From Escherichia phage Rac-SA53, in sequence record KU052037.1: 52,291 nt of DNA, one strand, 5' to 3'. The position numbers are program-made. The first letter of the stretch is position 1. Every line of letters begins with the position of its first letter. This document shows, piece by piece, positions 1-9,000 of the stretch.

Positions 1-3000
1 GGTATCGCACAGATGCGACGGCACCACATTCTGCATCGCGCTGAACATCGTCTCGATACGCCCTGGATAACGTTTATCCCAGTCACGCAACATGTCAGCA
101 ATCACCTGACGTTGCAGGTTAGGCTGTGAACCGCACAGGTTGCACGGAATAATCGGGAACGCTTTTGCATCGGCAAATCGCTGAATATCTTTCTCGCGGC
201 AGTAGGCCAGCGGACGAATAACGATATGTTTGCCATCATCGCTCATCAGTTTCGGAGGCATACCTTTCATCTTGCCGCCGTAGAACATATTTAAGAACAA
301 CGTTTGCAGGATATCGTCACGATGGTGACCCAACGCGATCTTCGTCGCCCCCAGTTCCGTTGCGGTACGATAAAGGATACCGCGACGAAGGCGAGAACAC
401 AGTGAGCAAGTGGTTTTGCCCTCTGGAATCTTCTCTTTCACGATACCGTAAGTATTCTCTTCAACAATCTTGTACTCAACGCCCAGCTTTTCAAGATACT
501 CGGGCAGAACGTGTTCCGGGAAGCCCGGTTGCTTTTGATCGAGGTTAACAGCCACCAGCGAAAAATTGATTGGCGCGCTTTGCTGCAAATTGCGCAGAAT
601 CTCCAGCATGGTATAGCTGTCTTTACCCCCGGAGAGGCAAACCATGATGCGATCGCCTTCTTCAATCATATTGAAGTCAGCAATGGCTTCGCCCACGTTA
701 CGACGCAGACGTTTTTGTAATTTGTTCAGGTTGTATATCTCTTTCTTCGTATTCTTTTGATTTTCTTGCATTATTTCAGTTCTCTGGTACTAAATGGGGC
801 AAATTGGGGGCAAACTTTGCAACTACGGTAACCGCGCATTCAACATAGCTACCTGTTCGTCGTTCATGTCATCAATCCACATACCGTAAATTTCATACAC
901 CATCTGCGCAGTTTCATGCCCCATCTGGCTGGCTATAAATGCCGGGTTCGCTCCTGCCGTCAACAGCCAGCAGGCAAAAGTATGTCGCGTATGGTACGGA
1001 TTACGGCGGCGAATACCAGCACGTTTTACAGCTGCATTCCATCTCGCTCCCAAACTGCTTACCGAGTAATAAGGTTTCTGTTTTCCGTTACACACCCTGG
1101 GCATGAAAACAAAATGCAGTTTTTGCTTTTCAGTTCTGCCGTACTCCCGATGATAAAAAGTGATTTCGCTTTTGCGATGATGCCCGGTCAGTTTGTATTG
1201 CTCCTTCAGTGCTTCAAGAGCCGGCTGCAGTAATGTTACCGTCCGGATCCCGGCATTTGTTTTTGGGGGACCGAACATATCAAGTATCGTCAGGTTTCTT
1301 CTGACATTCACAATTCCCTTCTCGAAATCCACATCCTCCCATGCCAGAGCAGCCAGTTCCCCGTGACGAAGCCCGGAGTAAACGGCAAATTTCCACAAGT
1401 TCTGGCTCTGTCCTTTTTCACTTTCCATTAATGCATTGAATTCTGTTTTAGATAACGGATCAGGCTTTATTCTGTTTCGCTGTAATTTTTTTACTCCTTC
1501 AAATGGTTTGGTTGATATAAATCCCGACTGATACGCAAAACGTAACAACGAACAGAGCAGAGCGATATAGTTATCAACTGTGCGCACGGTTCTTCCTTTT
1601 TTGTTGGATCTTGGATTATCCAGGTAAAGCGTTTCTCCATGCAGTAGTTCATTCCGGTAGTTTAAGATATCGCTATAACGAATATGTGATATTGGGGTAC
1701 TCTCACAAATTATTATCCTGAGTGTTTTTAATTGTGATTTCGTTTTCTTCATTGTGTTTGTTGTTAACTCTGTCTCTTTAATTTTTGTCCAGATATCACA
1801 AAGCTCCCCGAATGTTTTTATGACCTTCGTTGTCACCATTTTTGCCCCAGTGCTGGACTGGGGAAAACGTCTTAAATACTCGAATTCGCCGGAATTGATT
1901 TCGTGAACTATCAACGCTCTTAAATTCCCGGCCTTTTTAATATTACTGTTAGTAACCTCCCAGCCTTTCAATGTTTCCCGACATCGTTTTCCTCGAAACA
2001 TGAACCAGATGCGAATGTATTTTCCCCGAATCTCGACACCTGTTGGTAATTTAGACATATCATGAGTCTTTGATAAACTGATTTATCTTCGGATAGTTGT
2101 ACCAGATAATCCCTCGCTTGCTGTCTGGCTTACCTAAAGGAGATACTCGTTTGAAGTGGAAGCCTTCCACCCAACAGTTCTGGCGGTATGCTTCAATTTG
2201 TCTGGCCCCCAGACCAGTACGAAGCATCAGACCGTATTCAACCATCCACTCTTCATTAAAGATCACTTGTGCCATCGCATCACCTCTGGCAGGCGCCAAT
2301 GTTAGACTGAAATTGACGCCCGATGTTGATTATTAATAATCAGCTATGAAGTTTTAATTTGAATACAATGCAATTCACGAGGACTGAAGTTTCTCGCAAT
2401 TAAAATTTATCAGTTTTACTTTCTGCTCTCTGGAAACGCCTGCTTCTTTTTTCCCTGAGAGCATTTTTTCGCATTCCGATTTGGTTAACTTTGTTTTTGA
2501 GTACCTTGTCCAGTTAGTAGGAGTGCCACCTTCCTTTTCAATAGTGGCGGTAATTTTATACATGAACACCTCCATTATTATTTCCAGTGGTTCGTTTATT
2601 CCATCGTTCGAGTGCTTCTTTTTCACTTCCACCATAGCCGGTTCGGGATTCGCATCCGTTACACTTCGCGCGGTAATATCCTGAAATGGCTTTCACCGTT
2701 ACTGATGGACAACCACAAAAAGGGCATGGTTTGACTTTTTCATACCGCATTGTTTTTTCTCTCATATAATAAAATTTTGTGATGGCGGTGAGGCTACACC
2801 GCCAAAGTCAATATCAGGAGCCGATATATTCTGGTTTCATATCTGTCAGTGTCGTTTTATACGCCTCATATAATTCACCCAGATGTGGCCGGGCAGCATT
2901 CAGCGTATTTTCCAGAGCAGTAAATTTTTGTTCTGCTTCTGGATCACCTGATGAAGGAAGGTCATTTATCATCTTCTCGATACTGGCAATAGCATTGAGA

Positions 3001-6000: not shown

Positions 6001-9000
6001 TGACCTCGATCCCAATTGGTGCTTCTTTCACGGACGCAACCACGATGGCGCGGGAATAATCCAGCCCGCCAGGCATGGTGATGAATTTGTCGCGGAAAAC
6101 AGAAAAGGGCGGTTTATTTTCAGCGATAATTTCCTCAATGCGTTTAGCGTGTGCAGGATGAAGGTTATAGATGTCCACGTCCATTGAACGGGCCAGTACG
6201 CCAGTGGCTACATCGCGCGCCAGTGACGTCAGATTGTGGACGAAACCTTCGCCGCGATCGGTGAGGTTCCCGCCGCCAGCATTAGCACCGGAAGCCGTGC
6301 GAGTGATGCGTGAAACACGATTCCCTTTTCGCCATTCTTTTGTCAGAAGACCGCGATCAATGTGTTCGGTATCCAGCCAGGCTGAAATGAAATTCTTAAA
6401 TTCATAGGGCTGATGTTTTTTCGTGATAGAGAAAACTGCCTTAATTGCATCAGTCAGGCGGAGCAGGGCGGCATTATCCAGAGTTGTCGGTTCTGCCATG
6501 CCGCGTATGGCCAACAGCAGATTCTGGACATAGCTGTTTTCCTGATCCATCTCAAGAGCAGTGATGTGTTCGCGTTGTTCACGGGTGGCATGATGCAGGT
6601 ATTTCCGATCCCCGGCCGCATACGTAAAAATGTGCAGAAGACGCTGTGTGAACCGCAAAGTGGCTACAGAGACTTCGCAATCCTGGCAATCCCCGTGGGC
6701 GTCTGCCTGCGCGTTTTCTTCCTGGCCCCCCGCCAGTTCTTTGGTTTCCTGAGCATTATCATGGTGGTGAACGTCGTCTGGCGCTGCTCCCGGTTTTAGT
6801 TCCCAGGTCATGGAGTCTTTGCTGAGTTGATAGCGTTCACTCCAGGTAAAATCGATCTCACCTTCAGGGGGAAGGTCATTAACGACAGGAAAATTCGTGG
6901 CAACAGCTTTAAAATAGCTGCTCAGTTTTTTACCTGACTTAACGATCAGGTAGTCCAGAGTGGCACAGGTCGATTCAAAATCGTCGCTTGCCCACAAGAC
7001 GACGTCAGGTTCACCGGATGATTTTTTCGCTTTCCGTAACAGGAAGAGTGGTTTTGTGCTCATTGTTTTTTAACCTCAACTCAGATTAAAATTCGTTTTG
7101 TTCAGTGAATGATCTTGCCGGATACACACTGTTCATAGCCTGCGCCATACGCAGGCTATTTCTTTCAGATTTCACCGTTTAATTTCATTGCAATCAGAGT
7201 TGCCAGAAATCCGGCTTTTTTTTCTGCGGGCAGATTCTTTCCGATGTGAACCAGGCACATTTTTGTGACACCTTCATCAAGTGTTTTTACGTTGCCTGAT
7301 GGACCGTCGATATCAACCACAGTGAATGGGGTTTCTTTATTTTCTGTTTTAATCACGTAGCCAATACGCTTTCCTTCCAGATTAACCTCGTGAACAATGT
7401 CATCGGTAGTTACAACAGTGGCTTCATAATTGGTAATCATGTTTTTCTCCTTAATTAAGGTTGAGTGAATCCCTGCCATTGCTGGCATAAATTCAGTTTC
7501 GAATAGTCAGTTAATTAAAGTTCGTGTGCCATCTGGTCTTTTTCGGCACATATTTCACTACAATATTTTTTCATTTCCGTCGTTGGGATAACTCCACGCA
7601 TGAAATGAAGTGGTTTTGTAATGCTTTTGCTTTTTTCAACTTCTTTATTGCAAAGGTGGTAAGCACATTTTATTTTCTTAGTCATCACCATGACTCCGCC
7701 TTTACAGGTAAACCATCACGACCGAGGAAGACTTTAATCATGCAGTCAGTAATGCATGTTTTTGTGGTCAGGTTACGAATATAAAGTTTTCGCTTTTTAA
7801 TATTGTTTGCCGAGGCAATATATGTCCGGCCTTCATGAAGAACATAATCGCCAGGAGTCACACACTGACGTGGTATTTCATCAGTTCCGAAGTGATGTGC
7901 AATCATAATTATCTCCATTTTTACAAATGAACTTTGTTGATGCGGTGCCTGGTGCCTCCAGGTGACGTTAACCAGTTAACAATTAACGCCGGATAATCCA
8001 CCCATAACACTGATGCTTTTAACTGTTCCGCGTGCGCTTAGCCGCATTCACCGCATCACAAAATTCACTTTAAAAAGGGGCGGACATCAGCCGAACTTCA
8101 AGAAAAAACTGATGCCGCCAAGACTACACACAGCAATGTCGTTATTTACAACCGGAGGCGCACTCCCACCATTTAAATTTCACAGACAAGACCGGACTCT
8201 TTATGGATACCGGAAATGCGCCTTCGTGTTGTATGCCTGTCTTTTTACCACTTTAGGCTCGGTGGTATACTGGAGTTCTCACACAACCAGTAAGGAATTG
8301 CTTATGCCTATTCAATCTCAACACAAAAATATTGATTATCTTTCCGCCAGATTAGAGGCTACCACGCTTGTTCTTGAAGAACTTGTTAAACTTCTTACGC
8401 CAGAGCAGCGTGAAAAACTGAATCTGGCAATTGCCGGGCGTTGTCCGGGCGTGAAAAATGCGTCTCTCAGGAATAGAAATTCTCTCGCATATCAATTATT
8501 ACAGTTCATCAATGATGGCGTCCGCAGCAGCGATTAATTTTTCTAATGCCTCTTCGACATGATAATTGTATGGTTGTAGTGACCTGACATCTGTAATTGC
8601 ATTAGCCAGGTTTCGTGCCATTACGGCTGGTGCGATTTTTTTTGCTACTGATACCCGGCTGGCGAGTTCCAGTGCGAGACGTGCCTGCCTTGGAGTTAGC
8701 TCTCTCTCCTTTGCCATTGTTGATGCCTGTACAGACAATTCATACGCCAGGCAAAATACAGCATTATTCGTTTCTAGCGGGTCAATACTCTGAGTAAATG
8801 TCATCTTATCTCTCCCCTTAACGCCGGGTGGCGGAACTAAAACCTACAGCGCCGTGCTGTTCTTGATATAAATATTAGTAACACGGATATTTTAAGTCAA
8901 TAGTGTGACGTATTATGTTTTTGATTTAGTAACTAACTAAATGTTTTTTCAAGGGAAAAATATTAGTTATACAGCTGATTTGCAGAAGTTATGGCACAAA

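Follow-up and report, generated by a model that had tools for sequence, protein, structure and literature searches.

A probable cognate Gifsy-type exonuclease-annealase cassette and a hybrid recE gene in the Rac-like prophage Rac-SA53

The 52,291-nucleotide stretch of Escherichia phage Rac-SA53 deposited as KU052037.1 (hereafter the window) is a complete-looking Rac-like prophage of Escherichia coli, with a RecET recombinase in its early-left operon. The recombinase consists of a RecE exonuclease (exodeoxyribonuclease VIII) and an adjoining RecT-like annealase. Judged by sequence comparison, the nuclease domain of RecE and the annealase very probably belong together as a cognate Gifsy/EHAP1-like cassette, which replaced a cassette of the K-12 type as one block, since the same types of nuclease and annealase adjoin each other in Gifsy-2 and in about 150 Enterobacterales loci. 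The genes are already annotated in RefSeq and their type is known from the Gifsy phages. Two modest additions are made here: the hybrid nature of recE, and the tendency of the C-terminal extension of the annealase to stay with RecE during exchange of the annealing core.

The borders of the exchanged block are taken from a blastn comparison of the window with K-12 Rac. The match to K-12 breaks off just outside the annealase gene and resumes within recE at about residue 614, the equivalent of about residue 590 of K-12 RecE. The nuclease domain of K-12 RecE comprises residues 564-866 and can genetically substitute for the whole protein (PMC11611040). By these borders, the piece that was swapped in as one unit consists of the whole annealase gene and exactly the nuclease domain of recE. 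With the junction placed upstream of the nuclease domain, this domain would have arrived together with the annealase. RecE is a mosaic, in which the first 613 residues are of the Rac type except for one patch, and the remainder is a nuclease domain of the Gifsy type. Unlike in the Gifsy phages, the N-terminal two thirds of the protein are Rac-type, with a nucleotide identity of 90-94%; over the block at 6767-8232, which takes in the recE N-terminus and genes upstream of it, the identity to K-12 is 93.9%. Comparison of the small patch (residues ~100-235) with K-12 RecE gave no significant match; it is 36% identical to residues 129-253 of Gifsy-2 RecE (E = 5e-21). In the literature searched, no recE was found described that joins an N-terminal region of the Rac type to a nuclease domain of the Gifsy type. 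At least two unrelated RecET cassettes stand behind the same Rac-type RecE N-terminus in E. coli, and the location of the exchange point at the start of the nuclease domain supports the view that the nuclease domain and the annealase are a functional unit to which the 600 N-terminal residues are accessory.

The same partners are found side by side in other genomes. In Gifsy-2 of Salmonella enterica, a RecE of 961 amino acids, 45% identical overall, adjoins a RecT of 369 amino acids, 61% identical over its full length, and the two are collinear with the pair in the window. Gifsy-1 and Gifsy-2 share with the window the Exonuc_VIII N-terminus, the long PD-(D/E)XK domain with its helical insertion, an annealase of about 369 residues with a linker and a C-terminal domain, and the position of the pair in a lambdoid prophage, with xis on one side and the early-left genes on the other. 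The Gifsy-1 RecE covers 98% of the nuclease domain at 52% identity. When derepressed, the Gifsy recET genes suppress recombination defects (PMC3121763). A scan of one genome per species yielded 80 loci with the long nuclease in Enterobacterales, among them Kluyvera, Enterobacter, Citrobacter, Serratia, Proteus, Edwardsiella, Pectobacterium and other genera. The adjoining annealase at 72 of these 80 loci is 354-398 residues long and matches the window annealase over most or all of its length, and the C-terminal domain is detectable at the C-terminus of the annealase at 75 of the 80. In the reverse direction, 76 of 80 viral contigs carrying the C-terminal domain have a long nuclease with the insertion upstream. 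All 80 viral loci of the K-12 type have the K-12 RecT and lack both the insertion and the C-terminal domain; because they are copies with 98-100% identity, they represent one lineage only as a negative control. Of the complete E. coli genomes, 5426 in number, 1728 have the K-12-type cassette, 190 the nuclease allele of the window and 32 its exact recT allele.

Some of the surveyed records carry questionable species labels. Two loci, labelled Sphingomonas (L023) and Streptomyces (L077), have recET genes near-identical to those of three Serratia loci (L026, L033 and L079), so these assemblies are probably contaminated. Another, PP818812.1 (L004), named 'Actinobacillus phage vB_Apl-pPE4', has a Rac-like recE (95% amino acid identity to the window), kil, a dicA-like repressor and ydaT, and looks like an E. 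coli phage genome despite its Actinobacillus label.

RecE matches the NCBIfam equivalog for exodeoxyribonuclease VIII (NF007259) over residues 1-1045 with 1354.6 bits (cutoff 1269). Its N-terminus belongs to the Pfam family Exonuc_VIII (PF06630, residues 2-182, E = 2.4e-67), and its C-terminus to the PD-(D/E)XK family DUF3799. An earlier note on this DNA had read the same open reading frame (ORF) of 1048 codons and described both termini as RecE-like; this is true of the N-terminus, while the C-terminus is a PD-(D/E)XK domain whose sequence is only distantly RecE-like. In the BLASTP alignment with K-12 RecE, the two proteins are collinear from residue 1 to about 613, after which the C-terminal domain is divergent and longer. 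RecE has 182 residues more than its K-12 counterpart, of which 158 are in the nuclease domain, 17 in the divergent patch (residues 96-240) and just seven in the acidic middle, so that the expansion which the earlier note had seen in the acidic middle belongs elsewhere. The zinc-ribbon-like insert reported there does contain four cysteines, spaced CxxC-x7-CxxC rather than with eight residues between the pairs. It is not an insert, because K-12 RecE has the same motif at residues 517-531 within the collinear stretch. The regions shared with K-12 RecE are thus residues 1-99 and 236-613, with the motif included. Gifsy-2 RecE lacks the motif and has a different acidic middle. A Pfam search of RecE found no domain over the motif, which falls in the N-terminal region whose function a review calls unknown. 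Nor does the exonuclease depart from known variants, as had been supposed: it is collinear with Gifsy-2 RecE over its full length and bears the label recE in 190 E. coli genomes. At five loci from Proteus, Rahnella and Buttiauxella (L070-L073 and L076), RecE has only about 500-577 residues and consists of the long nuclease domain without the Exonuc_VIII N-terminal region, and the long annealase is still found downstream. Since these loci keep nuclease and annealase, the N-terminal 600 residues of RecE seem to be dispensable in nature.

The nuclease domain, equivalent to residues 590-866 of K-12 RecE, has no nucleotide similarity to K-12; its amino acid identity to the K-12 domain is about 29%, found over the last 130 residues, and phmmer relates it to PDB entry 3H4R with E = 5e-6. 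At the C-terminus there is nevertheless a PD-(D/E)XK nuclease domain of RecE fold, and the five predicted active-site residues (Table 1) align in order with H652, E657, D748, D759 and K761 of K-12 RecE. Most of its extra length is a single insertion at a site where K-12 RecE has about 25 residues. The insertion is all-helical in the predicted structure, with a per-residue confidence score (pLDDT) of 85-95. It contains three repeats of [YH]NxxL and two of SGx[KR]EQL, in which the motif residues do not vary across the family alignment, and its ratio of nonsynonymous to synonymous substitution rates (dN/dS) is 0.10-0.20. Searched alone against Pfam, the insertion gave only sub-threshold coiled-coil-like noise; its interpretation as a SAP or helix-extension-helix (HeH) DNA-binding motif was dropped, as no Pfam profile matches. 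By alignment, the insertion is a trait of the family and not a peculiarity of the RecE in the window.

The annealase belongs to the superfamily that unites RecT with Redβ (Bet), the annealase of phage lambda. Pfam PF03837 matches residues 41-227 with E = 7e-37 and 127.3 bits (cutoff 24). The use of Pfam to tell RecT from Bet was dropped, because PF03837 matches both lambda Bet (116 bits) and K-12 RecT (189 bits). PHROGs does separate the three proteins: the annealase falls in phrog_561 (513 bits, residues 3-366), K-12 RecT in phrog_148 (342 bits) and Bet in phrog_252. From this separation, the annealase appears to be a third branch of the RecT/Redβ superfamily, weakly nearer to Redβ than to K-12 RecT. 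Relationship to the K-12 RecT type was not detected by BLASTP, by phrog_148, by the NCBIfam RecT models at E ≤ 0.01 or by hhalign (E = 0.63), in agreement with the earlier note, which had held that the protein is not a K-12 RecT. The same note placed it closer to Bet; a weak nearness stands, since the weak secondary matches of the annealase to phrog_4171 and phrog_10056 are shared with lambda Bet, but membership of the Bet type does not, as neither phrog_252 nor the NCBIfam Bet model matches. The ERF family gave no Pfam match, PF03837 being the sole family at E ≤ 0.1. A phmmer search of PDB sequences with the annealase returned nothing, and a hidden Markov model of the annealase family gave marginal motif matches only to Bet, K-12 RecT and the Serratia annealase. 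Homologues number 6537, the best 120 of which span 336-386 residues, and they go by the names 'RecT family recombinase', 'Gifsy-2 prophage RecT' and, in many cases still, the old misnomer 'enterohemolysin'. Because of this last name, phrog_561 is here taken to be the EHAP1-like group. PMC8093625, citing Iyer et al. 2002, describes EHAP1-like proteins as a subgroup of their own within the RecT/Redβ superfamily in E. coli and Salmonella.

The long C-terminal extension that the earlier note had seen in the annealase is borne out by the structure prediction, in which a probably disordered linker leads to a helical domain of about 110 residues. The annealase is about 100 residues longer than K-12 RecT and has about 145 extra residues at its C-terminal end. 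In the predicted structure, the core comprises residues 30-213, the linker residues 214-251 (pLDDT <50) and the C-terminal helices residues 256-364 (pLDDT ~82). The linker is the least conserved stretch of the family alignment. Conservation is 80-97% in the core and 19-58% in the extension, except for the C-terminal motif DMKPEYIG. The extension alone, like the nuclease insertion, met only sub-threshold coiled-coil-like noise in Pfam. Between the recT alleles of E. coli, a sharply bounded, hypervariable patch of 282 nucleotides in the core (nucleotides 3336-3617, residues ~101-194) has zero nucleotide similarity, and its flanks are 88-94% identical.

Lambda Redβ, too, is built from an N-terminal annealing domain followed by a linker and a C-terminal domain of helices, and the lambda Exo-Redβ system is likewise a two-component recombinase of exonuclease and annealase. 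Its exonuclease differs from that of the window, which is of the RecE type and not of the lambda Exo type. It is by the C-terminal domain that the lambda annealase docks on its exonuclease (PMC11611040), and binding of this domain to lambda Exo is reported in PMC6393309. AlphaFold models place the RecE-facing surface of RecT near its C-terminus (PMC13490951). By analogy with the Redβ C-terminal domain, and from the comparisons below, there is about an even chance that the extension couples the annealase to its RecE partner and that the annealing core is the exchangeable part.

Two kinds of comparison point to the extension as the candidate coupling module. The first is a hybrid annealase, found downstream of the long nuclease at five loci, three from Serratia and the two with Sphingomonas and Streptomyces labels. 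This Serratia-type annealase has a core that resembles K-12 RecT (30% identity, E = 1e-24) and ends in ~110 residues with homology to the C-terminal domain in the window (E = 1e-12); it matches phrog_148 as well as phrog_561. As the extension is present on two types of core, both beside the long nuclease, it is a portable module. The second is covariation of pairwise identities, which are not independent of each other, in 123 non-redundant pairs and in a set of 64 representatives with a Mantel test. Among the 123 pairs, the identity of the C-terminal domain follows both the nuclease core (Spearman 0.71) and the insertion (0.75). For the annealing core, which is situated between them on the DNA, there is no correlation with either (0.19 and 0.12). 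In the 64-representative set the values are 0.75 for the C-terminal domain (Mantel p = 0.0005) and 0.14 for the annealing core. In about 25 contigs, identity to the window is 96-99% in the nuclease domain, only 57-59% in the core and 80-85% in the C-terminal domain. The reverse holds for Gifsy-like loci, with 58% in the nuclease, 75-86% in the core and 39-50% in the C-terminal domain. Evidence that the extension remains with RecE when the core is swapped was not found described in the literature searched; a survey of mosaic recombination modules in lambdoid phages left the 'shuffling of partner interaction domains' unanalysed (PMC12315714).

A more specific proposal, that the extension is a portable docking domain whose partner is the ~160-residue nuclease insertion and which can be moved onto unrelated cores, is tentative and rather doubtful. 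If it were true, phages could swap the annealing engine freely and keep the coupling to the exonuclease, and a question left open in PMC11611040, whether annealases other than Redβ bind their exonuclease through a C-terminal domain, would be answered for a RecE-type system. The comparative data, in which the extension stays with the exonuclease and the core is shuffled, offer a handle on partner specificity, and suggest as a design rule for recombineering chimeras that cores be exchanged and the C-terminal domain retained.

Several observations weigh against a coupling role of the extension. Covariation with the nuclease and C-terminal domains is found for the N-terminal blocks of RecE as well (rho 0.55-0.80), so the signal may reflect no more than shuffling of the core, the rest being phage backbone. 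For this reason covariation is weakened as proof of contact between the nuclease and the C-terminal domain, and the non-independence of its data points weakens it further. E. coli alleles with 98% identity in the nuclease have only 80-85% in the C-terminal domain, where synonymous divergence reaches 0.31, compared with 0.04-0.14 in the nuclease, so the two are loosely tied. The differences between these alleles are on a fine scale, as the unalignable patch at nucleotides 3336-3617 shows. The C-terminal domain has no detectable homology to that of Redβ (hhalign against lambda Bet, E = 0.25), which is also shorter, with about 70 residues against about 110. A more general limit is the annealase model, which is of moderate quality overall (pLDDT 69, predicted TM-score (pTM) 0.37) and with which Foldseek found nothing significant.

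It is quite possible that the extension is no dock for RecE, but binds SSB, the host's binding protein for single-stranded DNA, or another phage or host factor, or drives oligomerisation, and that its covariation with RecE arises because the core is a hotspot of exchange between co-resident prophages. The equally strong covariation of the RecE N-terminal blocks would then be expected; core segments conserved at 96-97% could seed recombination, and the divergent patch between E. coli alleles lies inside the core only. The Redβ C-terminal domain binds SSB too (PMC11611040), and extended bundles have been suggested as accessory surfaces for SSB or other factors (PMC13490951). These points have to be set against the exchange between K-12 and the window, in which the annealase was transferred along with the nuclease domain, not with the N-terminus of RecE, against the occurrence of the extension on two unrelated cores that both adjoin the long nuclease, and against its absence from all 80 K-12-type loci. 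The C-terminal tail of SSB is nearly invariant in Enterobacterales, so binding to SSB would leave the divergence of the extension unexplained.

On prophage induction, the PD-(D/E)XK domain would, by analogy with its family, resect the 5′ strand at double-strand ends. The annealase would then be loaded on the 3′ overhang and anneal it to complementary single-stranded DNA, its C-terminal extension possibly playing the role that the Redβ C-terminal domain plays toward lambda Exo. All modules of recE and the annealase gene with unsaturated synonymous sites have a dN/dS of 0.06-0.28, which indicates purifying selection on them. Since the active-site residues are also conserved, the pair is likely to be functional. 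The Rac prophage of K-12 is cryptic and its recET genes are silent unless activated, and some related contigs have a truncated or frameshifted recE, both of which would fit decaying, non-functional remnants of a cryptic prophage. Such decay is nonetheless very improbable here: besides the conserved active site and the low dN/dS, both reading frames are intact, 190 complete genomes retain the nuclease allele at no less than 95% nucleotide identity, and the surrounding prophage has integrase, replication, lysis, terminase and tail genes. Least probable of all is the mixed pairing suspected in the earlier note, in which a RecE-type exonuclease would be joined to a non-cognate Bet-like annealase with unusual or broken partner specificity, for although the annealase lacks BLASTP similarity to K-12 RecT and recE is visibly mosaic, nuclease domain and annealase came in together, the same types adjoin in Gifsy-2 and in the two locus surveys, and the Gifsy pair is genetically active (PMC3121763).

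Table 1. Features of the recE-annealase region, with nucleotide positions in the window
Feature	Position	Strand	Residues	Basis or remark
recE (exodeoxyribonuclease VIII)	3917-7063	minus	1048 amino acids	ORF, Pfam, NCBIfam, RefSeq annotation recE
Annealase gene (recT-like)	2814-3917	minus	367 amino acids as longest ORF	ORF, Pfam PF03837, phrog_561
Left flank, ends 10 nucleotides short of annealase stop codon	1-2804			blastn, 96.5% to K-12 Rac
Replaced block: annealase gene and recE nuclease domain	2805-5221	minus		blastn, no K-12 match
Rac-type acidic recE middle	5222-6358	minus	RecE 236-613	90.6% nucleotide identity to K-12; collinear in BLASTP
Second non-K-12 recE patch	6359-6766	minus	RecE ~100-235	no K-12 nucleotide match
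Rac-type recE N-terminus	6767-7063	minus	RecE 1-99	5′ part of block 6767-8232; Pfam Exonuc_VIII
CxxC-x7-CxxC motif, zinc-ribbon-like	5399-5443	minus	RecE 541-555	regular expression and BLASTP alignment
Long PD-(D/E)XK nuclease domain	3920-5224	minus	RecE 614-1048	predicted active site H682, E687, D919, D932, K934
Helical insertion, ~160 amino acids	4478-4981	minus	RecE ~695-862	alignment with K-12 and Gifsy-2, predicted structure
Annealing core, RecT/Redβ-superfamily fold	3258-3857	minus	annealase 21-220	
Acidic linker, predicted disordered	3153-3257	minus	annealase 221-255	pLDDT, family alignment
Helical C-terminal domain, candidate partner-coupling module	2817-3152	minus	annealase 256-367	AlphaFold, alignment

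In the sequence TAATG, the stop codon of recE and the first ATG of the annealase ORF overlap. RefSeq starts the annealase coding sequence at the second ATG (nucleotide 3902; 2814-3902), which is preceded at a distance of eight nucleotides by GGAG and to which the start of Gifsy-2 RecT aligns. The second ATG is thus probably the true start, giving a protein of 362 residues, although the ORF of 367 codons given in the earlier note is confirmed as such. Several complete E. coli chromosomes, of which many are from Shiga-toxin-producing strains, contain the 4.25-kb recE-annealase stretch at 100% identity. In the identical RefSeq genomes, the two genes are labelled recE and 'RecT family recombinase', and the prophage is bounded by ttcA and uspF. 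It occupies the ttcA site, as Rac does in K-12, and has the same neighbours intR, xisR, ralR, racC-like, ydaE and kilR.

Other parts of the prophage, as annotated in RefSeq in an identical genome, carry accessory genes. In mid-prophage, at ~14806-17315, a copy of IS1 is followed by a convergent pair of genes for an 'sce7726 family protein' and a 'beta family protein', which together may be a defence or accessory island. The late region has two pairs of toxin genes. One pair, at ~20466-21697, encodes an AB5 toxin binding subunit and a catalytic subunit labelled 'EplA'; the other, at ~23488-24628, consists of an 'enterotoxin A family' gene and an 'enterotoxin' gene and lies between the lysis genes and the terminase.

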